From Rhizophagus irregularis (Eukaryota), in assembly GCF_026210795.1 (NCBI RefSeq), contig NC_089436.1:1364001-1428000 (forward strand): DNA of 64,000 bases, read 5' to 3'. The notes under the pieces are model-generated. The model made no database searches. It was given only the letters and a program-made list of their open reading frames with translations, and was not told the origin of the DNA. Of this stretch, positions 8,165 to 63,850 are shown piece by piece. The position numbers and the translations under genes were made by a program. Each line of letters opens with the position of its first letter. Within the stretch, counting starts at the first letter, position 1.

Positions 8165-8459
8165 CCCTATAAAAAAAGAAAATTCGGAATTTGTCCTGAA
8201 AAGTATGGAAAATGTCCGGAAATTTTCCGTGCGTCCGGAAAACATTCGGAAACAGTCACGTTTTGGAACATTTTCCAGACGCACAAATTCCAGACATTTT
8301 CTTGACACTCCAGAATTTGTCCGGAATTTGTCCAGAATCGAGCGTCCGGAAAATGTTCCAAAACATGACCGTTTCCGAATGTTTTCCGGATACACGGAAA
8401 ATTTCCGGACATTTTCCATACTTTTCAGGACAAATTCCGAATTTTCTTTTTTTATAGGG
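8165..8459. mobile_element. Near-palindromic CMC/CACTA-type MITE (CCCTA...TAGGG)
   Basis: Arms of >110 bp are near-perfect inverted repeats; 3-bp TTT duplication on both flanks; internal TTTTCCGGA repeats. Confidence 0.88.
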
Positions 8460-14340: not shown

Positions 14341-14870
14341 ACCCTTTGATAATACCCTTAAGTTTGTAATTTTTCACACTCTTTATCATCGGCCAGCGGT
14401 CGGCGGTGTATCAATTGAAAGGTCACGTCTGGAGAGTTAACCATAATACTCTAACACGTGTCGGGTTATATACTTTCCACAAGCGAGAAAGGCTGTAGGT
14501 AGTTGCATCAAAAAGAGTTTGAAAATGACATCTCTTATTTTTTCTTTTTCGTATTTAATTCCATTACAAGTCTCTTTCGTTTTCTATGAGACAATGTTCA
14601 CGTCAAAAAGAAATTGGCTTACCTCTTGATTTGACATATCCGATATATCCCCTCAAGTAGTCAACTTTTTCTTTATTTTCTGTTATTGTTGAAAGAACTT
14701 TCTCTACTTTATTTGCGTCTTTTTGGTTAAAAAAATGCATAGCAGAAATATCGATCCAATACACAATATGACTAATATGAATTAACTTTTTTGTTGAATT
14801 ATTGCATCAACAGATATCTGATATTGAATTTTTTTTTGAACAAGTGCTAGAGAAATAAGAGAAACATATG

Positions 14871-15758
14871 AAATGCGAGTCCCAGCATCATATTTATTTC
14901 TTTGCTCTCTCACATTTTCGAAAAATATCTATAACTAATTTATTTCTCTATAGCTAACTACGAGATTCTCGGCCTTTTCAACAATAGATATTCGAAATAA
15001 ATAATCCACCCATATATACAGAATGTTTGCCCATTTATATCACTCGCATAAATTATAAAGAAACTATCGATTTTAGCCAATTTCCGCAAGAGAACTTCCC
15101 AGAGATTAAGTAATTTCAAAACTACTGCGTAAATTCTGGAGATTAGCAATGAGTTAAAGAAAATAAGCGATGCAATATTTCTCGATTAAACTTACCAATT
15201 TACTTAATTTTCATAATATTCCAATCCACCTCATATACAAGGAATCGATTACTTAATTTCTTCTGCACTACGACACTGCGCAGAATTCTGCACGTGAAGA
15301 CTTTTGCTGTGCCGTTGCATGTGACGAGTTTCATGTGAATAATTTCACTGCGCGTGATGATAGTCTGAGATTTTCTCGGCATGCCGATATATAACAAGAA
15401 GGTAAAATGTCCGTTTTTATTTTGGAACATCTATAGGAAGATTGATTAACATCGTGATGACAAGTTTCAAGAAGCTAGCCGAACAATAAACCATCTTACC
15501 TTATTATTACTTTGCAGAATATACGAGTTCATTTGATTAATGATATTGATGATGTACAGTAAATAATGGTAAGCTAGATTGGTTTAATTAGTTAGTTTTG
15601 TTTGATTTTTATTTTACTTGCATGAGGTAGACAAAAGGATTCGTTAACCGGGACATCACCTTTTTATACAATTTGGAGGATCGACCTTTTGGGAAAAATT
15701 ACATTAATATGATCGCATCACGAAAATCTGATCAACGGCATCCCTTAATTTAACAATA
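14871..15758 (+). repeat. ~900-bp dispersed repeat, copy 1
   Basis: Collinear blocks shared with 57299-58220 (ATGCGAGTCCCAGCATCA; TTTCAAGAAGCTAGCCGA; AACCGGGACATCACCTTTTTAT; CATCACGAAAATCTGATCAACGGC). Confidence 0.85.
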
Positions 15759-17544
15759 AAGAATTACGTATCCAACGCCGATGTTTTATATTATGTATAT
15801 AAAATGATGTATTAATTTACTTTTCAACAACTTGAACTTTGTTCTATTTGTAAATATGAATAAAAACTATCATTTGTAGTGATCTTGAGTTTTAACTGAA
15901 GTTAATAATAAACCTTCGATAGTCTAGGCGATTGAAATTCATCTTTGTCCAATTTTATGACATCTTGTGAAATAGAAGTATTTTATGCGAAACTCCGTCT
16001 TAATAACCTATTCCAAATAATAATTTCATCCAAATCCAAATTATCCCGTTTTAAAAGCAACTCCAGAATAAAATACAATTTTAGCTTCTTGAAAAATTTT
16101 CTCAAACATTAATTAAAATAATTCCACAAATCCATAAGTAAATTACTTATGTTGATAAGTTGTTCAAGAATTTCTATTCTGTTGCAAAAAACTCACAATC
16201 ACACCTTTTTTAATGTACAATATCCATATTATCGTACGGCTAATGCAGATCATGCTTTATTTTGTTTATTATTAATAGACTTATTCTTTCAAAGTATCTA
16301 TGAATAATACAAGAGATTAGAGTGAGATTGGATATTAAGTTCATTTACTGCAATTAAGAACTGGAATATTTCAGAACTTTGTAGTTTTTTCAAATCAATA
16401 AAATTTACACTATAGGTATTAGTTACCGAAGTCCATTTTGTTTAACTCGTATTACAAAACTACTTGATCGAAATGTCATATTACCGAAAGTTACTTGATC
16501 GAAATGCCAATTTGCCAAAATCCATTTTACTGGAGGAATATTTTATCAAAATACGAAAATTAATTTTTTTAATGAAATAAAAATGAATTTTAATTATATG
16601 AAAATGATCCGAGTCATTTGAATTTCAAGAATCAAAAAAGCGCTTTCTTTAGTTATTATTGAAAAATACAATAACTAGAAGACAGATCGGTATCCTGTTG
16701 ATTTGTTAATTGTTAATTGCATCGGGAATTGATATTGTCACGAGGTATCGCATGTGAACATTACCACCATTATATGCGCAAATTATCCGATCCGCAGATC
16801 TGATTATCAATATGATTCGCGGTTCCAGATTAATAACAAAATTGGGATTCAAATCGGGATCTGAATCAAATTTATAAGGATCGGATCACATTTTTATGTT
16901 TTCATCAGAGTTTTTTTTTATTACACTAGATATAGCGAACTTTTATAGTAAAACACTCCGTATCCTATCATTTTGATATACCTGCTTTCCCAAAGTTTTT
17001 CACCCACGTGACTTGCATAATTTATCGCCCTGTGCACGTTTAAGTATTCTGAGACGAATTTCTTAGTGTCACCTATGATCATGTGAATAAAATTTTATTT
17101 GTGCTTACCTAACAGTTCGGTTTATATAATAACATTATGTAGTGAACTCACTCTATACGGAGAGTTCATTATATCTAGTGGCGATTGTACCAGAAAACAA
17201 TGTATGGAAGAATCCACAACAGTTCAGAAATCAATCCACACTTGGACTACATATTTCCATCAGAACTCCTGGTTTATCTGGTTTATGCATGAACTTGTTG
17301 AAACTTGATTATCCCAGAATACAAATATAGTTGAGGCATTCCGCTAATGGAATGAATACATTGATTGGAAGAGCACATATTAATGTTTACAATTATAGAA
17401 GAAAAAATTAATTTACTTCATATTTCTAATTATATAGCAGAAAAATAACAAAAATAAATATTCTTAATAATATTTTTAAAATTTTAAATAAAAAAGGTAC
17501 TTGGTATAATCCCTCTTGTAATACAAATAAATAAATATTATAAT

Positions 17545-18290: not shown

Positions 18291-19380
18291 GGGGGGAAAG
18301 GGGAGATACGAAAGGGAAAGGGGAGATACGAAAGGGAAGGGGAGAACGAAGGGAAAGGGGAGATACGAAAGGGAAAGGGGAGAACGAAAGGGAAAGGGGA
18401 GATACGAAAGGGAAAGGGGAGATACGAAAGGGAAAGGGGAGATACGAAAGGGAAAGGGGAGAACGAAAGGGAAAGGGGAGATACGAAAAGGAAAGGGGAG
18501 ATACGAAAGGGAAAGGGGAGATACGAAAAGGAAAGGGGGAGATACGAAAGGGAAGGAGATACGAAAGGGAAAGGGGAGATACGAAAGGGAAAGGGAGATA
18601 CGAAAGGGAAGGAGATACGAAAGGGAAAGGGGAGATACGAAAGAGAAGGGGAGAACGAAGGGAAAGGGGAGATACGAAAGGGAAGGGAAAGGGGAGATAC
18701 GAAAGGGAAAGGGGAGATACGAAAGGGGAAAGGGGAGATACGAAAGGGAAAGGGGAGATACGAAAGGGGAAAGGGGAGATACGAAAGGGAAAGGGGAGAT
18801 ACGAAAGGGGAAAGGGGAAATACGAAAGGGAAAGGGAGATACGAAAGGGAAAGGGGAGATACGAAAGGGAAAGGGGAGATACGAAAGGGGAGAGAAAGGG
18901 GAGATACGAAAGGGAAAGGAGGAGATACGAAAGGGAAGGGGAGAACGAAGGAAAAGGGGAGATACGAAAGGGAAAGGGGAGAACGAAAGGGAAAGGGGAG
19001 AACGAAAGGGAAAGGGGAGATACGAAAAGGAAAGGGGAGATACGAAAGGGAAAGGGGAGATACGAAAAGGAAAGGGGGAGATACGAAAGGGAAGGGGAGA
19101 ACGAAGGGAAAGGGGAGATACGAAAGGGAAGGGAAAGGGGAGATACGAAAGGGAAAGGGGAGATACGAAAGGGAAAGGGGAGATACGAAAGGGAAAGGGG
19201 AGATATGAAAGGGAAAGGGGAGATACGAAAGGGAAAGGGGAGATACGAAAGGGAAGGGGAGAACGAAGGGAAAGGGGAGAACGAAGGGAAAGGGGAGATA
19301 CGAAAGGGAAAGGGGAGATACGAAAGGGAAAGGGGAGAACGAAAGGGAAGGGGAAAGGGAGAACGAAGGGAAAGGGGAAA
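18291..19380 (+). repeat. Purine-rich minisatellite, ~20-bp unit GGGGAGATACGAAAGGGAAA
   Basis: About 1.1 kb of tandem units with small indel variants (GAGAACGAAG); explains the five overlapping low-complexity ORFs. Confidence 0.95.
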
Positions 19381-33775: not shown

Positions 33776-34682
33776 TACACCCTATTCCTTTTTTAATCAT
33801 ATTTTTTTTTGGGTAATTTGTAACCAGCCTTCGGAAAAAATCCGGAAAAACATCGGTATTTGTAAAATTCCCCGAAAATCTAACATAACTGAGTAACAGA
33901 ATCGTGAAAACTTTCCCGGTTTTACAAGAAATTTTTCGGAGAATGCGACAAATTTAGTATAGATCGGACTTGTAACACTAATAACATTAATAAATTTCGT
34001 GATACGATAATTTTGTTGTTAAATAGTGCAACGGACTTTTGAATACCTAGTATATTAAGTATATTATTAAAAAAAAGTCTTTTTTGTTTTTTTTTCATTT
34101 TAAAAATGTTGACAAATTTATAATAAAATAATGTTCTTGACTTCTTAATAACATTATTTTTTTGATCTAAAAAAAAAATGTATATCGTATAATTTATGAA
34201 TGTAAAAAATTAAGCTCCATCTAGATATTTTGTACTCACAATAAAGTTTTATGAAAAGACGAAATAATTGATCGGCCTGCATGAAATTGTCATGCCAAAT
34301 GCGTGCGCAATGAGCTTTAGCGCAACGTTAAACCTCTACCAGCGTATAAAATCTATTCTAAAATCTGAACTTGTCGGATATCAATTATAGTATTCAAACA
34401 ATATGTGTAAAATATGCAATTCATATTATTTATTTTAATTGTGTATTACAGAGACGCCTTGTCATTTTTTACTTTGAGCTATACCGAATATTAACGAGTG
34501 TCTGAAAATTATTCGGTATCTCATACATTGCGATATACTGGTAAATTTTAGATTTCGGAATTTTCTATTTCCGAAACTTCCAATCTTTAAAAGATTCGAT
34601 TATGACAAGAGCATAAATAAACAAAATTTCCCATGCTTTCGTTTTCTTTCCTCTAGTTTTCTTTTTCTATCAATAGATAAAA

Positions 34683-36192
34683 ATGTTTCGAAGTATAATA
34701 ATTCTCATTACAATCTTCGTAATCATTATAGCAGTTTCTTATAATTGGCTATATGAATTTTATACTGTTCTTGGATATAATAGACCAAATATTAAACCTT
34801 ATGAAAATGGAAAATGCAGAATAATCAGAGGTGAACAAATTTCTTCTAAACTTTATTTTGTTTTTTTTATATATATAACTTCATGATAATCATATTGTAC
34901 AATATAAAGGTGTTGAAGCTTGTGAAGATATTCATATTCATCATCGTACTGGGTATGCTTTTATGACTTGCGGAAACGAAATTAAAAGAACTAAAGGTTA
35001 TTGGCCGCCACTTAGTACTTATAATTCCAATATTCAGACAAAAGATACGCCTTATATTTACGATATCAATGTAAGTTAAAATTATGTTATTAATTTTTTT
35101 ATTACAAATATATTTATCTTATTAATATATACATATATATATACACGTTTTTTTCTTAGAATGATAAACTCATTCCACTTGTCTTGAAAAATTTTCCTCT
35201 TGAAGAAGATTTTGCAACTCATGGATTAGGAATTTATGAAGATCCTGAAAATGAAAATAAATTATATTTATTTTTCGTAAATCATAAAAGATCTGGAAGT
35301 TGTTTTGAAATATTTGAACATACTTTACATACAAATGAATTAATTCATTTAGAAACAATTCAACATAAGTTAATAAATACTCCAAATGATGTTGTTCCAG
35401 TTTCAAGACACGAATTTTATTTTACTAATGATCATTATAATAACAATCCTACATATAAACATTTAGAACGTGAGTTTTTTCTATTATATAAATTTCATAT
35501 TTTCATGATTTTTTTTTTAAAAAAAAAACAATTATATTTATCTATTATTATTATTTTTTTTATTACAAGATATTTTGCCTCTTTCATGGGCAAATGTAGT
35601 ATTCCATTCATCAATCACGAATGAAACTAAAATCGTTGCTGAAATGCGGCTTCCTAATGGAATTACTTCGAATTTGGATAATTCTCTTATCTATGTTGCC
35701 ACAACATTTGGTTATGTTTTAGTATATGAAAGAAACAAGTATAATAACGAACTTGAATTAAAGGATAAAATATTCACAGGATATGCTACCGATAATCTTA
35801 GTGTTGATGAAGAAACTGGTGAAATTTATTGTGCTAGTAAGTTATATTTTATTAGAAACTAATCTTGTTTATTAAATTTAAAATAACTTATTTATTTATT
35901 ATTATTATTATTATTATTTTTAATAGTCTTTCCAAAACCATACATGGTTGTAGCAGCTCATGGCAAGGAACTAGGATATGCTCCTTTTGTACCGACTGGA
36001 ATATTAAAAATTAGTAATAATACTGAAAGGGATAATGAAAAATACTCTCTTAAACCTATTTTTGAAGATGATGGATCTTTATTTCAATTAACAACGATAG
36101 CCGCTGTAGATAGAAAAAGAAACACTTTACTCCTTGGTTCTTTTCGTTCTAAAGGTATTGTAAGATGTAATAGTTTAGAACCATTAATTTAA
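34683..36192 (+). CDS. Paraoxonase/arylesterase-like Ca-dependent lactonase, copy A (5 exons)
   Basis: N-terminal hydrophobic anchor; motifs ACEDI, HGLGI, FVNH, PNDV, TNDHY, PNGI, DNLSVD of PON-family six-bladed propellers. Confidence 0.92.
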
Positions 36193-36661
36193 ATACTAGA
36201 ATATTATTAGAATTTCTGTAAATCAATTATTAGATAATTTTATATAATTTATAATTTATAATTTTAATTACAATTTTAAAAAATTCTGTGTATGTATGAT
36301 TTGTATAACATGATGACAAACTTTGATCATAAAATACAATAAAGGATTTAAAGGATTTACCACAGTCTCTCCCTAAGCCAAAGTTAAAAACTTGTGTAAA
36401 CAACCTAGATTGTGAACAGATAAAATACTCATAAAATTATCCCAATAGTTTCAGACAAATTCGCAATAAGGAACTTGAATTCGAATCGTTAATAGCGGAT
36501 CAAAAAGAAGGATCAAAGGAACTTTGAAAAAAGTACGAACCAATCAAATTCTTACATATTCATGAAAAGAGATCAGAACCAATACTTCTTTGGCCTGATA
36601 ATGCTGCGTAACCACTTCACGGATATACTTGATTGGCAGTTGCATTGCAGTGATGGCCGAC

Positions 36662-44675: not shown

Positions 44676-45549
44676 CAACATTTATTTAAGTTAAACCATT
44701 ATATAATATGTTCGTACATAATATCAGCTTTTTAACTACAGTTAATTATAATTTCAATTTTTATAAATTACTTATCAGCAGGTTATAATATAATAACTTA
44801 AATTATTTAGCTGGTATTTAATCTTTCACTGTGATATTAACCATCAATATCTTGTTATTATTATTACCAGAAAAATCGTCTTTTACGGCTTACAAACGTG
44901 CTACTTAAGCTACTTAATTCAGCTTTTTATTAAATAAATTTAATAAAGTTTCCCTAATAGTGTTTATTAATTTGCTGTAATGTTTTTTTTTTTGAAATTG
45001 TATAAAATACTAAATAAATTTCACTACTCACTAGTCTAGTACATTATTAATCATATTATGTTAGCTATAACTTATAATAATAATGACGTGACAACCAAAA
45101 TCACTGCAACTGCCACGTGAAGTATTAGTACGAAAAAAATATTTAGAGTCTCTACGTATTCTTTCAGTTTTGATCTCTCGATGGTTAAGTAAACTTTTTC
45201 AGGAATTTTCTGTTATTAGTGACTCGAATTCAAGTTCCAAAACGCCTCTATATTGCGAACATCTAAACCATTAGGATTATCGCTTTAGAGTTTAGATTGT
45301 TTACACATTATTTTCTCAGATTGGAAGCAAGTGTTTAACATTGACTTAGGAAGAGACTCTGTTAAATCCTTTAAACGAGAATTTGATGAAATTGTATTTT
45401 ATGATCAAGTTTGTCATCATGTCATCATTTCATACATATCATACATAACATACACAGTTTTAGCAGAAATTTTTAAATTGTAATATATTTTATAACTATA
45501 TAAATTATTTAATACACAACAATTCTAATAATATTCATAATTTTTAAAT

Positions 45550-47039
45550 TTATGGTTCTAAACTATCACATCTTACAATACCTTTAGAACGATAAGAACC
45601 AAGAAGTAAAGTATTTCTTTTTCTATCTACAGCGGCTATCGTTGTTAATTTATATAAAGATCCATCATCTTCAAAAATAGTTTCAAGAGAGTATTTTTCA
45701 TCACCCCCTTTAGTATTATTACTAATTTTAAATATTCCAGTTGCCATAAGAGGAAGTTCTAGATCGTTGCCATAAATCATAATCTGGTATAGGTCTTGAA
45801 AAACTATTAAAATAATAATAATAAGTTATATAAATTTATAAACAAGATTAGTTTCTAATAAAATATTACTTACTAGCACCATAAATTTCACCAGTTTCTT
45901 CATCAACACTAAGATTATCGGTAGCATATCCTGTGAACATTTTATCCTTTAATTTAAGTTCGTTATTATTCTTGTTTCTTTCATATATTAAAACATGACC
46001 AGATGTTGTGGCAACATATAATAGAGAATGATCAAAATTCGCGGTAATTCCATTAGGAGTTCGCATTTCAGCAACAATTTTAGTTTCATTCGTGATTGAT
46101 GAATGGAATACTACATTCGCCCATGGAAGAGGGAAAATATCTTGTAATAATAGTAAAAAATAGATAATTAATTTTTTTTTTAAAAAAAAAAATCATGAAA
46201 TACGAAATTTATATAATAGAAAAACTCACATTCTAACAGTTTATTTATGGGGTTGCTAAAATAATGATCATTAGTAAAATAAAATTCATGTCTTGAAACT
46301 GGGAAAACATCATTTGGAGTATTTATTAATTCATGTTGAATTGTTTCTAAATGAATTAATTCATTTGTATGTAAAGTATGTTCAAATATTTCAAAACAAC
46401 TTCCAGATCTTTTATGATTTACGAAAAATAAATATAATTTATTTTCATTTTCAGGATCTTCATAAATTCCTAATCCATGAGTTGCAAAATCTTCTTCAGG
46501 GGGGAAATTTTTCAAGACAAGTGGAATGAGTTTATCATTCTAAGAAAAAACGTTCATATATATATATATATATATTAATAATTAATAATAAGTATATATT
46601 TGTAATGAAAAATTAATAATATAATTCTAACTTACATTGATATCGTAGATATAAGGCGTATCTATTGACTGAATACTGGAATTATAAGTACCAATTGGAG
46701 GCCAATAACCTCTAATTCTTTCAATTTCTTTTCCGCAAGCCATAAAAGCGTAACCAGTACGATGATGAATATGAATATCTTCACACGCCTCAACACCTTT
46801 ATATTGTACAATATGATTATTTTTTTTTTCACAATTATGAAGCTATATATATATATGTATGTAAAAAAAAATTCAAAAGAAATTTGTTCACCTTCGATTT
46901 TTCTACACTTTCCATTTTCATAAGGTTTAATATGCGGTCTATTATATCCAAAAACAGTATAAAATTCATATATCCAATTATAAGAAAGTGCTGTAATAAT
47001 TGCAAAGATTAAAACGAGAATTGTTATACTTCGAAACAT
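45550..47039 (-). CDS. Paraoxonase/arylesterase-like lactonase, copy B (5 exons)
   Basis: Same exon structure and catalytic motifs as 34683-36192; frame maintained at the splice junctions checked. Confidence 0.92.
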
Positions 47040-47579
47040 GTTTATTTATTATAAGAAAAGGAAGACTAGAGGACAAGAAAGTAAGTAAAAAATATGGGAA
47101 ATTTGGTTTATTTTATGCTCAACTAAATTGGATAAAGATTTCCTAAAATTTCCCGATATAACGATGTTTACGTAATGCTACGAGACTCTTAGTCATCGAG
47201 AGATATGGTAATCGGTAAATATTCGGTATAGCTCAGAATAAAACAAAAACTATAAAACTATGCTCTCTGAGTACATGATGGACCGGTACTACCATAGGAA
47301 AAGTCAATCGTGAATTAAAAAAAAATAAAATAAAATAGAACAAAAATTATACCATTGTACTTGGAACAAGTGTAATGATAACCCTAAATAATGTTCATCC
47401 TGTACAAAATTTTTATTCAAACAATAAATTATGTACTACATGCCTACTCGGACACTTCTATAAATCTGGTTACTCTAATTAAACTCCAAAAGTTAACTCC
47501 TTCCCTAATAAACATGTCAACTCAATTAAAAGAGAAATTTAAGAAACACACCTGTATTAGACTCCGGAGAATTTTTTTT

Positions 47580-57144: not shown

Positions 57145-57298
57145 TTTCTTGATTAAATTTTTCCGAAGTACATGTAAATAGTTAAAAAAAATAAAAACGC
57201 ATTTATTTATTTTTGATGTATTACGAAATTATTTTTCGAAGCGAAAAAAATATATGATACTATCAAAGAGGAAGGGAGTACGCGGATCCTAGGCCATT

Positions 57299-58220
57299 AA
57301 ATGCGAGTCCCAGCATCAAATTATTCTTTGCTCTCGGAATAATTTCTACAGATAATTTATTTTTACATCTATTACTAACTACACCCCAACAATCTTTCTC
57401 TACACTAGAATTCCGAAATAAATTACACCACTTATATCTACATAATTTTCGTCTATCTATATCACTCCCACTCGCACAAACTATGTAATAGATTATTTCC
57501 CATAAGAGAATTTCTCCAAGATGAAATGATTTCGAATCTATAGGAAGAATTCTTGAGATTACAATGAGATAAAAAAAAAATAAAACAAGTTGAGGGCTTC
57601 CGATTCACACTTACTGCTATAATTCATTTTAATAATAATTATTCCACACCCGCCTCATAATATTTCGAATTTTTTATTGTTCGATAAATTTATTTGACAT
57701 ACTGTGCCAAATTTTGTTGATGTTGATGAGACACGTGAAGTCGATTAGATTAGATAATATTATTTTTCGTGATACTGCTAATTATTTCACTGCGCCTATT
57801 ATATGCGTAAGGATTTTCTCGGCAAAGATCAAAATGCCGATATATAATAAGAAGACCGGTGGAAGTAATATGTCTGGTTTAGTTTGGAACATCTAAGAAG
57901 CGGGAAATTTGATTAAACATTGTGATGGTATGTTTCAAGAAGCTAGCCGAGCAATAAAACCAACCTACCTTATTATAACTTTGCGGAATATGCGAGTTCA
58001 TTTTGATTGTTGATTTCGATGATGTTAATAATGGTAAGTTTTATTTTTCGTTTGATTTTTGCTTTAGTTGCGCAAGACAGATAAAAGAGTTCACTAACCG
58101 GGACATCACCTTTTTATATGATTCACAGGATCGATTTTAGAATACGCTTTTGGTGCAAATTACGTTAATATGATTACATCACGAAAATCTGATCAACGGC
58201 CTCTCCTTAATTTAACAATA
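57299..58220 (+). repeat. ~900-bp dispersed repeat, copy 2
   Basis: Diverged collinear match to 14871-15758. Confidence 0.85.
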
Positions 58221-58702: not shown

Positions 58703-59516
58703 CTATGCTACGATCGCGAATTTGAATTTATTGCTTGGAGTGAAGCAAGTAAGATAATATTCCAACTTAACTTGGGAATACAATTTCGCTAATTCAGGAT
58801 CATAAGGGAACTGATTCCCATTTTTGTGGTACCGTTCGTCATGTAATCCATAATTCCCATGTTTTCCATCGCAAATAGGACATGGTGAATTCCACGGCAG
58901 AGGTGATGTAAAATCATAATTATCAATCCCTCTGAAACTATTTCCAAATTTCAAGTATGGGAAGTGCTCTAAGATGGATTTGATAATTAATTCTGGATCA
59001 GGTCTGACTTCAAAAGTTATAGGCTCAGAAGAAGATAAATAGGATACTTTGTTTTCTGGCTTTGAATTTATGAGAAGGTGATCTTCTGATAATTGCCATG
59101 GCTCATGCCCAGTTTCTTTTTTATATTTTTTGTATAAGTTGGACCAAATCTTATCCATCAAAACACTTGGTAACCCACTCCCTATAAAAACTTTTTATCC
59201 AAATATTTCCATTATTTCTCTGTGTCTTCCGTAAAAATTCTGTGAAAATGGTACATTCACGGATATCCATGTTAGCAAGATGAAAATTTTCATGATTTAA
59301 AGCTATTAATTCCATGAAAATGATACATTCATGGAAAAAACATGGAAAGATAAAACACGGATCAGACTTTTTACAGGGACTTAATACTTTATCGGACTTA
59401 GTTATGTTTTCTTTTTTCTATGATTACAGATCAATTTAAATTCCTGGATAGAAAGCTGTCTAATATTTCTTATTATATTTCCAAAAAAATAATTAGATCA
59501 TCTTTTAAATTATCTA
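58703..59516 (-). pseudogene. 3' part of an intronless hypothetical gene (LEHFPYL...CPICDGKH) broken by MITE/CACTA insertions
   Basis: Removing 59180-59378 plus one TSD restores KSDKVLS-GLPSVLMDKIW...; upstream portion has stops. Confidence 0.65.
59180..59378. mobile_element. CMC/CACTA-type MITE (CCCTR ends)
   Basis: CCCTATAAAAA...TTTTTACAGGG, 3-bp ACT duplication on both flanks. Confidence 0.85.
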
Positions 59517-59871
59517 CACTAGTCAAAAAAGGACAATTCGGCCTAAATTTGACCAGGTCGAATATAGGTCAAATGATGATCTAACCTGTGTCAAATTGAG
59601 GTCAAATTTTTGGGCGCATTTAGGGTGCCAATCGTCTCAAATTCGGAAAGAATATTTGGCTAAAATTAGACCTATATTTGACATTAAAACTTAAGTTGAA
59701 TTATAGTCTAACAACCACCTATTTTATTTCTGAATTTATTTTAATTTTATCATATAATCATATATCAAATTTATTAAAGTATTTATTAAATGCTTAATTA
59801 TATTATTATTATTATTAGCATCTATCTAAATTACAAATAATTATTGCTAATCTACAATTTCACAATCACAT

Positions 59872-62049
59872 GATTCGTGTATTCGTATATACTTACGAAT
59901 CTTGATCTTTTGGAAATCCACCAAAACTATAAAAAAAAGAAAAGAATAATGGTTAGTAACCGTTCTATACTATTAAAAAAAGCAGAAAAAAATCAAGATT
60001 CTACTTACGAATCTTTGTTTTTTCTGTTCTTTAGAAGCCCACCTGAGACACCAAACCTATAAAAAGAAAAGAAAAGAACGGTTAGTAACCGTTTATAATA
60101 ATAAAATAAACCAAGATTCGTACTTACAAATTTTGGTTCCTCTTTTCCCTGAAAGTCAAGATGACATCAAAAAAAAGAAAGAATGGTTATTAGTAACTGT
60201 TCATTAATATTAAATCAAACCAAGATTCGTACTTACTTACGAATCTTGGTTTTTCTACACGGAAGCTCGCCTGAACCTAAAAAAAAGTAAAGAACGGTTA
60301 TTAGTAACCGTTCATAATATTAAAAAATATATATATAAAAAAATATATAAAGATTCGTACTTACGAATCTTTATCTTTGGGTTTTCATTTTTTGGAAACC
60401 CACCCGAACCTAAAAAAAAAGAAAGAATGGTTAGTAAACCATTCATAATAATAATAAATAAATAAAAAATTAAAAGATTCGTACTTGTACTTACAAATCT
60501 TAATCTTTAGGTTTTCGTTCTTCGGAAGCCCACCCGAACCTATAAAAAAAAGAAAGAATGGTTAGTAAACCATTCGTAATAATAACAAATAAAAAAAAAA
60601 TTAAAAGATTCGTACTTGTACTTACGAATCTTAATCTTTGGGTTTTCATTCTTTGGAAGCCCACCCGAACCTATAAAAAAAGAAAGAATAGTTAGTAAAC
60701 CATTCGTAATAATAATAAATAAAAAAAATTAAAAGATTCGTACTTACGAATCTTTATCTTTGGATTTTCGTTCTTCAGAAGCCCACCTGAACCTATAAAA
60801 AAAAAAGAAAGAATGGTTAGTAAACCATTCGTAATAATAATAAATAAATAATTAATTAAAAGATTCGTACTCGTACTTACGAATCTTTATCTTTGGGTTT
60901 TCGTTCTTCAAAAGCCCACCTGAACCTATAAAAAAAAGAAAGAACGGTTATTAGTAACTGTTCGTAATATTAAAAAAAATATAAAAAAAATAAACCAAGA
61001 TTCGTACTTACGAATCTTGGTTCCTCTTTTCCCAAAGGTTAGAAGCCCACTCCATCCGAACTTAAAAAAAAAAGAAAGAACGGTTATTAGTAACTGTTCG
61101 TTAATATTACAAAAAATACAAAAAAAAACCAAGTTTTGTACTTACGAATCTTGGTTTTCCATTCTTTGGAACTCAGAACCCACCCGATTCTAAAAAAGAA
61201 GAAAAGAACGGTTATTAATAACCGTTCATAATATTAAAAAAATAAAAAAAATAAAGATTTATACGTTGAATCTTTGGGTTTTCGTTCTTCAGAAGCCCAC
61301 CAAACCTATAAAAAAATATACAAGAACGGTTAATAAACCGTTCGTAATAATAATAATAATAATAAATAGAACCAAGATTTATACTTACTTACGAATCTTG
61401 GTTCCTCCATTTTTCAGAAGCCCACCCGAGACACCAAACCTATAAAAAAAAAGAAAAGAACGGTTAGTAACTGTTCATAATATTAAAAAAATTAAAATTA
61501 AAAAAATTAAACCGCCAAGATTCGTACTTACGAATCTTGGTTCCTTTTTTCCCGAAGGTCGGAAGCCTACTGAACCTATAAAAAAAAGAAAGAATGGTTA
61601 TTAGTAACCATTCATTAATATTAAAAAAAAATATATAAAATAAACCAAGATTCGTATTTACGAATCTCGTGCTCCTCTTTTCCCGAAAGTCGAAAACCCA
61701 CCTGAACCTATAAAAAAGAAAGAACAGTCATTAGTAACCGTTCATTAATATTAAAAAATAAATATATAAAAAATAAACCAAGATTCGTATTTACGAATCT
61801 TGGTTCCTTTTTTCCCAAAGGTCAGAAGCCCGCCCGATCCTAAAAAAAAGAAAGAACAGTTATTAGTAACCATTCATAAAAAAAACCAAAAAAAGAAACT
61901 AAGATTCGTACTCATACTTACGAATCTTGGTTTTCCGTTTATCGGAAGTTCACCCGAACCTATAAAAAAAAGAAAGAAACGGTTAGTAAACCGTTCCATA
62001 ATAATAAAAAAGAAAAAAAATTTAAGATTCGTAATATAATACTACTTAT
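59872..62049 (-). repeat. Tandem array of ~18 intron + micro-exon units (~110-135 bp) with two palindromes per unit
   Basis: Minus-strand unit: GTAAGTACGAATCTT...T-rich...GAACGGTTACTAACCGTTC-TTTCTTTTTTTATAG followed by a 30-50 nt exon-like segment ending AAGATTC. Confidence 0.9.
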
Positions 62050-62469
62050 GAATCTTCACTTTCATTTTCCCTTTCACTTTCGTTTTACCCTTCCCCTTTC
62101 TTTTTCGTTTTACTCTTCTCCTTTCGTTTTACCTTTCCCCTTTCTTTTTCGTTTTACCTTCCCTTTCGTTTTACCTTTCCCCTTTCTTTTTCGTTTTACT
62201 CTTCCCCTTTCGTTTTACCTTTCTCCTTTCTTTTTCGTTTTACTCTTCCCCTTTCATTTTACCTTTCCCCTTCAGTTTCGTTTTACCTTTCGTTTTCCCC
62301 TTTCTTTTTTCCCCCTTTCTTTTTGTTTTCCTTTTCCTTTTCATTTTTATCCTATCCTTTTCGTTTTACCCTTTTCCTTTCATTTTACCCTTCCCTTTCA
62401 GTTTCGTTTTACCCTTTCGTTTTTACTTCCCCTTTCATTTTCTCTTGCCCATTCATTTTCCTGCGAAAC
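62050..62469 (-). repeat. Purine-rich (minus strand) minisatellite GAAAGGGGAA(A/G)GGTAAAACGAAA
   Basis: Pyrimidine-rich tandem repeats on +, bounded on both sides by the array's intron unit. Confidence 0.85.
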
Positions 62470-62875
62470 CTATATGGAAAATATGAACAGTTAGTAAACC
62501 GTTCATAATACTAAAATAAAATAAAAAAACTGACTTCCCCCTCCCATTTACCTTATTATCCCTGGTGCGTAGTTTTGACCAGCATTCTGGGAAGGGAAAG
62601 ATGACACTAGAATTTTTAAAAAAAAATAATAAAAAAAAAATTTTTTTTTTTCTGCGCCTATAGAGCTAAAAGACGAATAAAAGTTTAAAAAAGAATGCAT
62701 GATTCTTATTTAAACTTTTGATATGCGTAACGCATGACGTGACCATTTCACCAGCATGTTGGTTCGACCAATGTCTAATCGTAGATCATTGCTAATTGAG
62801 GTCGAATTTTTTAATTTTAGTCGAATATAAGCCGAATTTTACTAAGGCTGAATATTCTTTTTTCGACTAGTGCTA

Positions 62876-63850
62876 TGATAAGAAAGGGTAATGATTAATG
62901 AGATTATTATACAGTTATCTCAATTTCACGCTGTTCACATTTAATAAAGTAAAATCTGAATTTATACCTACCTTCTATGCTTTTTTCATCATTATGATCT
63001 AACTTGCATAATGGGCATGATGTCTCGTCAGTAATGTCATAATAATCAAAATTTTTGCTACTAAATTCTTTATACAAAGTAGGATATTGATCTAATATCT
63101 TGTTGTAAAAATAAGAGTGGTTATAAGTTATAGTTACCTTAGCTGAAACATTAATCTAATCATCATAATTCATGATGAAAGTCACATGATTACAATTTGA
63201 TACCTCTGGTCAGTATTGTACATTTTTGATGTCCACAACTTTTTTTGGTTGTTCTGAACATGCTTACGCTCTGTCTATACTCTTCTGTAACTTAAAATTC
63301 TCTACAAAAATTATATATATTTAAGTATAATTGGATGCTAAACATTTTTGCTAAGTATTAAACAAGGTTATCATAGAAAAATTTTGAGAGGTTATCATTT
63401 CTTTTTTGTGTAATATATCCCGAACATTATCCTATGACAACACTGCCTCCAGTATTCTTTCTGCTGAAGCCACATTCTTGATAACACTTTGAATTTAATT
63501 AATAGTAAGGCTTGATATGTCATAAATACTGAAAGTAATTTGCTTAATTTTATCTATTTCCACTCCACCTTTCCTAAATAACATATGGATTTTTTTAGCT
63601 CATAGGGTTTTCATACGTAAGTTTCCCAATGTGATACCAGGTAGATGTTCTAGCATTTCTTTGTATATTTGTAATCTAGCTGTTTTATTTGAAGCTTCAG
63701 TGTCATGACAAATCTCATCAACTTTATTTTCAAAACTATTTGAATAATAGAGCCAAGATAAGATCACCTTATGTTCAGCTTATATTGCATTCTGGAATAA
63801 ATGAACTAAGTTTTGCATCATATCTAAAGATGATGATGAATGTAATATTA
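62876..63850 (-). pseudogene. Degraded intronless hypothetical gene (KTARLQIYKEMLEHLPGITLGNLRMKTL*AKKIHMLF...)
   Basis: Protein-like reading with in-frame TGA/TAA; same strand as, and probably contiguous with, 58703-59516 before the CACTA insertion. Confidence 0.55.

Follow-up and report, generated by a model that had tools for sequence, protein, structure and literature searches.

The window analysed here is a 64,000-nucleotide stretch of Rhizophagus irregularis DNA, AT-rich and of fungal type, with P450 and tyrosine-kinase-like open reading frames (ORFs). A splice parse and a pattern scan of the minus strand identified a tandem array of 30–49 nt exons and 71–92 nt introns at 59897–61959, preceded in transcript order by the first array intron (61960–62048), which has a dead donor, ATAAGT. 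The array comprises 18 exon-plus-intron units, of which 16 are intact, one has the dead donor and one has lost its acceptor; in this last, damaged unit (60128–60240, minus strand) the AG is gone, while the donor and branch point are kept. The exons of the minus-strand parse (59897–62551) measure 38, 45, 46, 44, 47, 41, 44, 49, 45, 45, 45, 45, 45, 36, (acceptor lost near 60161), 48 and 30 nt in transcript order, exactly the series listed in a preliminary description of this DNA, and the introns measure 65–92 nt. That description had given a unit of approximately 125 bp; the repeat structure was recovered, with the tandem period corrected to about 131 bp and single units of 110–140 bp.

The units carry the features of U2-type introns, namely, a GT donor, a branch point, a pyrimidine tract and an AG in this order. 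The ordered pattern GTAA[GA]T, branch point, pyrimidine tract and AG matched 13 times on the minus strand of 59872–62060, with no match on the plus strand of the same interval or on either strand of window positions 1–59500. Among 500 dinucleotide shuffles, 494 gave no match and six gave one match. On the minus strand, GTAAGT was counted 14 times and TACTAAY 15 times; neither was found on the plus strand. The earlier statement that nearly every unit has a GTAAGT donor is corrected for two GTAAAT donors, one GTATAA (61264) and the dead ATAAGT (62048). The final donor (59896) has no array-type acceptor downstream. The splicing-cassette array reported at 59872–62540 is a real feature, and its description as a tandem repeat with a splicing cassette as the unit was borne out by the parse, by the pattern scan against shuffles and by exon–exon joints in family copies.

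The array is embedded in a gene-like order that runs, 5′ to 3′, from a short first exon through a first intron and a 421-nt purine-rich exon to the array and an AATAAA-bearing tail, all on the minus strand. The candidate first exon (62552–62602) matches residues 8–25 of the annotated gene model P0085 at 89%. An upstream exon with a GTCAGT donor had been proposed; it stands as a candidate with two possible donors, GTCAGT at 62534 and GTAAAT at 62551, and the annotated relative P0085 uses the latter. The first intron (62470–62551) has a TACTAAC branch point at 62496. The purine-rich exon (62049–62469) consists of GAAAGG-type repeats and has stops in all three frames. The probable last exon (59723–59896), within which the last donor is unspliced in one contig of the public run X18 (59826–59921), contains AATAAA at 59787, 59775 and 59728. 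AATAAA is the main poly(A) signal in R. irregularis (PMC10234402); these hexamers may be due to chance because the tail is AT-rich.

What the preliminary description missed is the container: the array forms the inside of a DNA-transposon-like element that ends in terminal inverted repeats (TIRs) and has a target-site duplication (TSD). Judged from its ends, the element spans 3,356 bp (59517–62872, minus strand) and would be a non-autonomous EnSpm/CACTA-type DNA transposon. Both termini carry CACTAGTC in inverted orientation, and the 5′ TIR (62843–62872, minus strand) is identical to the 3′ TIR (59517–59546, plus strand) at 24 of 30 positions; an end related to the latter occurs in another copy, the metagenomic contig L002. 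TAG flanks the element on both sides (5′ copy at 62873–62875, 3′ copy at 59514–59516, minus strand), a duplication seen at this one insertion, as L002 shows a single end. CAC..GTG termini with a 3-bp TSD, as found here, are the class criterion for fungal EnSpm families (PMC12730594). In R. irregularis, which possesses both RNAi and methylation, elements of the CMC type have recently expanded and are expressed (PMC8647823, PMC11075540). Two other classes were rejected. Chapaev3 requires a TWA duplication between A and T (PMC4079192), and here the duplication is TAG, followed by A. Plavaka requires TGT..ACA or CATCA..TGATG termini, which the ends do not match. Within the element, no long ORF was found besides low-complexity frames, and the element would be non-autonomous because no transposase lies inside it. 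Subterminal repeats are a feature of EnSpm/CACTA elements; AAATTYGRC/ATTYGAC-like short motifs numbered three and six in the two 200-bp ends, counts without a chance control. Two joints in contigs of public runs, 59503–62908 (X15) and 59441–62908 (X20), span the element from flank to flank with intervening letters that are not known, and are compatible with empty sites. No second copy of the element junction occurs in the window. The left flank adjoins a dispersed repeat (14868–15758 and 57296–58220, 68% identity), and the element seems to be inserted inside another repeat.

A further property absent from the preliminary description is that the splice signals sit in hairpins. Each unit forms three of these: the first lies within the exon, the second pairs exon end with intron start so that the donor is at the tip, and the third holds the branch point in its loop. 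For example, at 60993–61022 (minus strand) the exon end pairs with the intron start, placing GT atop the stem and AAGT in the loop, and at 60292–60313 (minus strand) CTAA occupies the loop. Three of five units folded with z below −3, and the five exons spliced in silico were not structured (z 0.1). The donor stem carries two-sided changes (A-T to T-A or G-C; C-G versus A-T). The covariation between its arms was reached in 0 of 5,000 shuffles, compared with 37 for the branch stem and 1,796 for the exon hairpin, which thus shows none; this covariation was not counted as selection because it is confounded by shared descent. Among 39 donors, a set that omits two from the window and contig L001, the loops exist in 21 variants, mainly short duplications or deletions at the tip and including loop deletions and, in L002, a loop inversion; GTAAG is intact in 33 of the 39.

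Where CpG pairs in the three stems had changed singly, 22 G-U wobbles and 22 mismatches resulted, and the present copies therefore decay without preference for the RNA strand. We then delimited 35 units on a stem arm alone. In these units, the acceptor AG was kept in 34, YTAAY in all 35 and the TTY|GTAAR donor in 31, against an average identity of about 0.7 across the exon-body columns (mean of the printed columns); the stems were conserved equally to the splice motifs. Of 39 donors, 35 keep the G and 29 the base that pairs with it in the stem (p=0.14). Conservation of splice motifs beyond what palindromic symmetry imposes, a test proposed earlier, can be seen at the acceptor AG, which lies outside the stems; at the donor, the G does not differ significantly from its partner and the stems are equally conserved. 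In 41 branch hairpins, the CpG at the 5′ edge of the stem, with its G inside the stem and its C outside, has decayed one way (TG 19, CG 14, TA 3, CA 0), which shared descent may explain. In L004, at 1470–1707 on the 3′ side of the array, donors that do not belong to the array also stand directly before short hairpins.

The array belongs to a dispersed family. A motif scan of soil-type metagenomes recovered four contigs (L001–L004) that contain it with differing flanks, and motif scans of viral contigs and prokaryote genomes gave none. L002 matches the last units of the element at 88% and ends with the related TIR CACTGGTC (30/40 identical) followed by TAG; L001 and L004 have other flanks with additional exons. 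All 47 rows of two protein searches were R. irregularis gene models built from array exons; 20 further protein matches comprised 16 from R. irregularis and four unrelated repeat proteins. After removal of P0052, P0060, P0075 and P0087 (four long matches from a profile-free search that are unrelated repeat proteins), P0001 and P0104, 102 of 108 models were retained, of which 94 match the element and 80 contain a junction-type peptide. The locus tags among the matches include at least seven RIR_jg and six OCT59, so each genome carries the cassette at several loci. Probable mis-annotation thereby explains dozens of 'orphan' or 'hypothetical' proteins in R. irregularis. Three annotated models (P0037, P0045 and P0046) splice unrelated upstream ORFs into the array, which suggests, at the level of annotation, that the cassette could be an exon trap for transcripts from its surroundings. 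Family members differ in the purine tract that comes before the array, which stands in one orientation or the other (P0041, P0049 and P0082 versus P0032, P0043 and P0085).

For evidence of splicing, we used joints in contigs of four public runs (X15, X18, X19 and X20), for all of which the RNA label is guessed; in the run search, no run containing the stretch was on record as RNA. Fifteen array joints were scored, comprising 13 among the 15 joints listed out of 61 and two from a second listing. In eight of these 15, an exon end was linked to an exon start, compared with about 1% of random position pairs, using distance windows that were set after the data had been seen. All eight came from X18, X19 or X20, which belong to three studies, and represent eight of the 13 listed array joints of these runs; neither of the two X15 array joints lay at splice sites. 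One of the eight has CT..AC ends, and one is present in all three runs. In four cases, hand reading of the letters between the two parts yields an exact exon–exon junction; for the other four, these letters are not known. One more joint, from X18, is compatible with a second donor lying 4 nt downstream. With 148 million letters and 2,477 contigs (seven times X18's contigs), X15 contributed none of the seven such joints in the main listing; this genome-sized run behaves like DNA though labelled 'RNA?'. The calling of joints used 88% likeness within a repeat, a setting in which false joints may arise, and they come from contigs of family copies, not demonstrably from the locus 59517–62872. X18 and X19 cover intron positions deeply, meaning that a large part of their material is either unspliced or DNA. 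Both have zero cover over the subterminal arms, which was not used as a transcript boundary because X15 is also shallow there, and summed contig depths were used neither as copy number nor as expression. Several of the joints 'go back', for which the simplest explanation is paralogues whose exons stand in another order; back-splicing is possible. Junctions at the predicted sites, proposed earlier as a check, were thus seen in family copies, and there is good support, short of proof, at the level of the family for splicing at these sites.

Whether the spliced product is read as protein was then considered. Five consecutive 45-nt exons (60365–60925, minus strand) read as RSGGLPKNENPKIKI variants in one frame, precisely as described before, and they depart from their majority sequence 16 times, with 10 of these differences silent in the frame compared with 31% expected. 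Counted as distinct changes, only six of 11 are silent, three of these six being CpG transitions, and the frame is the best of three. Nine of the 16 differences lie at CpG, and the 'silent' changes are largely CpG decay. Exons that are a multiple of three make up seven of 21 in L001–L004, exactly the chance level, and nine of 16 in the window, where five are near-identical neighbours. The RSGGLPKNENPKIKI frame has no ATG opening in three spliced models, in which the longest ATG ORF is 88 aa. It is the commonest frame in the gene models (149 of 259 motif matches); 39 of 48 models combine two or three reading frames of one exon, and the family's models use all three. A crude signal-peptide screen for a hydrophobic N-terminus was passed by three of 102 models, and Pfam gave no family in the array-derived models or flanking ORFs tested. 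A Rfam search of the introns returned six matches (E 0.087–0.9), all far below gathering scores, and no box C motif was found in the introns. The array transcript is likely a non-coding RNA rather than a protein message. Of the functions put forward in the preliminary description, the non-coding option is favoured by exon phases, mixed frames, stops and the lack of an ATG. A host transcript for structured intronic RNAs finds no support in the Rfam scores or the box C scan. An intron-amplifying element of the introner type is likewise unsupported because the introns multiply together with their exons, in tandem; all 41 units examined stand in tandem with homologous exons.

The best reading of these results is that the element carries a spliced non-coding transcript that grew by tandem duplication of an exon-plus-intron unit, a proposal to which we give an even chance. 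It builds on what has been shown, namely, the ends with their TSD, the U2-type splice signals that 16 of the 18 units hold in order, the hairpins and the family's dispersal. An EnSpm/CACTA-type (CMC) transposase acting in trans would have moved the element, and slippage or unequal exchange would have multiplied the 110–140 bp unit. Slippage at the hairpin tips could create the loop variants, and individual copies, including 59517–62872, would decay via CpG deamination. Finally, active master elements would keep their splice signals, with an intron-dense RNA that mimics host mRNA and delays silencing by RNAi or methylation. This licensing step is the weakest of the chain, and taken alone we hold it only tentatively, as somewhat short of an even chance. 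A non-autonomous DNA transposon needs no RNA for its movement, which counts against the proposal. Precedents exist in both directions: intron sequences shield Caenorhabditis elegans transcripts from piRNA silencing, and in Cryptococcus, stalled spliceosomes on introns with poor splicing kinetics trigger RNAi against transposon RNA (PMC6232588).

Several other explanations have to be weighed against this transposon-borne, spliced transcript. The array could be a neutral passenger satellite, in which an ancestral transposon exon and intron were amplified through palindrome slippage or a role at the DNA level, with splicing incidental and without function. The equality of wobbles and mismatches, the donor G, whose retention does not significantly exceed that of its stem partner, the abundance of donor-loop variants with the inversion and deletions, and the tolerance of dead donors and a lost acceptor would all be expected of such a satellite. 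Set against it are the acceptor AG, kept in nearly all diverged units in spite of lying outside every stem, the GTAAG that persists despite the loop variants, and the recurrence of the cassette with at least four different flanks; we regard it as possible and rather doubtful. The present data do not separate the neutral satellite from the licensing step. A bolder reading holds that a selected, swappable 'splicing cassette' was adopted and amplified by several fungal DNA-transposon families. Its roughly 18 hairpin-gated introns would place spliceosome marks on the element's RNA and thereby decide between passing as host RNA and feeding RNAi, with back-spliced circles (the joints that 'go back') as possible by-products; this we consider unlikely. 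The hairpins might instead serve as a silencing trigger or decoy, hiding donors and branch points so that spliceosomes stall and siRNAs directed at the transposon family arise from the stalled transcripts. The enclosure of both signals in hairpins, the folding of three in five units with z below −3, the deep intron cover in X18 and X19 and the Cryptococcus precedent, in which stalled spliceosomes recruit RNAi (PMC6232588), fit this idea. It is made improbable by the missing strand bias towards RNA-compatible pairs and by signals near to perfect consensus, unlike the poorly spliced Cryptococcus introns.

The micro-exon peptide gene family of the preliminary description, in which exon skipping would yield variable basic peptides with RSGGLPKNENPKIKI repeats, gains from the shared frame and silent differences of the five 45-nt exons, from the prevalence of the RSGGLPKNENPKIKI frame and from two annotated isoforms, P0082 and P0105, that differ by one repeat. 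Random exon phases, mixed frames, few signal peptides, a frame that lacks an ATG here and the absence of a Pfam family, together with silence in only six of 11 distinct changes, leave it very improbable. Lastly, the exon–exon joints might be intron-less DNA copies or mis-laid repeat contigs instead of products of splicing, in keeping with the guessed RNA labels, the 88% likeness and the joints that 'go back'. This is extremely improbable, given that eight of 15 joints fall at donor and acceptor positions against about 1% expected and that such joints are absent from X15, the deepest run and genome-sized. Intron-less copies are excluded by X15 alone, since that run, itself labelled 'RNA?', is the only DNA-like comparison; such copies would themselves imply earlier splicing.

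With regard to known systems, the container is a known kind of element, and the difference lies in its tandem exon–intron content. Non-autonomous EnSpm/CACTA (CMC) elements of fungi share with it CAC..GTG termini, imperfect TIRs of approximately 30 bp, a 3-bp TSD and the lack of an internal transposase, and CMC families are known in R. irregularis (PMC12730594, PMC11075540). The interior differs, as a tandem array of complete exon–intron units is not described in the available text of these two sources. Introners, fungal introner-like elements and the symmetrical (stw)introns of Hypoxylaceae are likewise families of similar introns with internal symmetry. However, they insert singly at new gene positions and their symmetry runs end to end, whereas here exon and intron are copied head to tail within one element and the hairpins are local, at donor and branch point (PMC11282704, PMC8469720, as far as their available text goes). 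Schistosome micro-exon genes also string together 10–20 very short exons; their coding exons are mostly multiples of three, with a signal peptide and introns of 0.1–5 kb (bioRxiv 10.1101/2023.06.21.545858, available text). In contrast, the array has random phases, introns of 65–92 nt and exons that are repeats of one another. Revolver of rye is similar in being a TIR element of about 3 kb whose internal transcript is spliced and for which no transposase is known, but has three exons, two long introns, a 139-aa ORF and no tandem array (PMC2851119, available text). The transposon-derived lncRNAs of Blumeria hordei are also non-coding and come from an obligate biotroph with RNAi, but they are antisense to transposons, and a repeated splicing cassette is not mentioned in the portions of PMC10648671 available. 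The content of the element differs from Glomhopper introns as presented in the accessible part of PMC13465315.

No such array is described in the available text of R. irregularis genome and transposon papers, among them PMC8647823, PMC11075540 and PMC5751038, or in the open-access literature retrieved by keyword. Six sequence and peptide motifs of the array were absent from the open-access literature and from one supplement; the element may be present, as a family without a class, in Repbase or in repeat libraries that are unpublished. The route by which working introns multiply differs here from that of introners: exon plus intron would be copied in tandem and then dispersed by a DNA transposon. 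Natural variants are numerous in the family, with splice sites either live or dead, and make the question whether introns shield or expose transposon RNA directly testable. Long-read, small-RNA and methylome data already exist for R. irregularis for this question of introns and silencing.

Other repeats were noted in the window. A 20-bp purine-rich tandem repeat of about 53 copies, open in several frames, occupies 18294–19354; it is 66–71% like the purine-rich exon of the element, with no intron array nearby. A 257-bp MITE-like segment with inverted CACTAGATATA ends and no clear 3-bp duplication lies at 16924–17180. The window further contains a palindrome of about 295 bp that is 87% self-complementary (8165–8459) and an inverted 1.8-kb duplication (34609–36394 and 45328–47120) with 85% identity.
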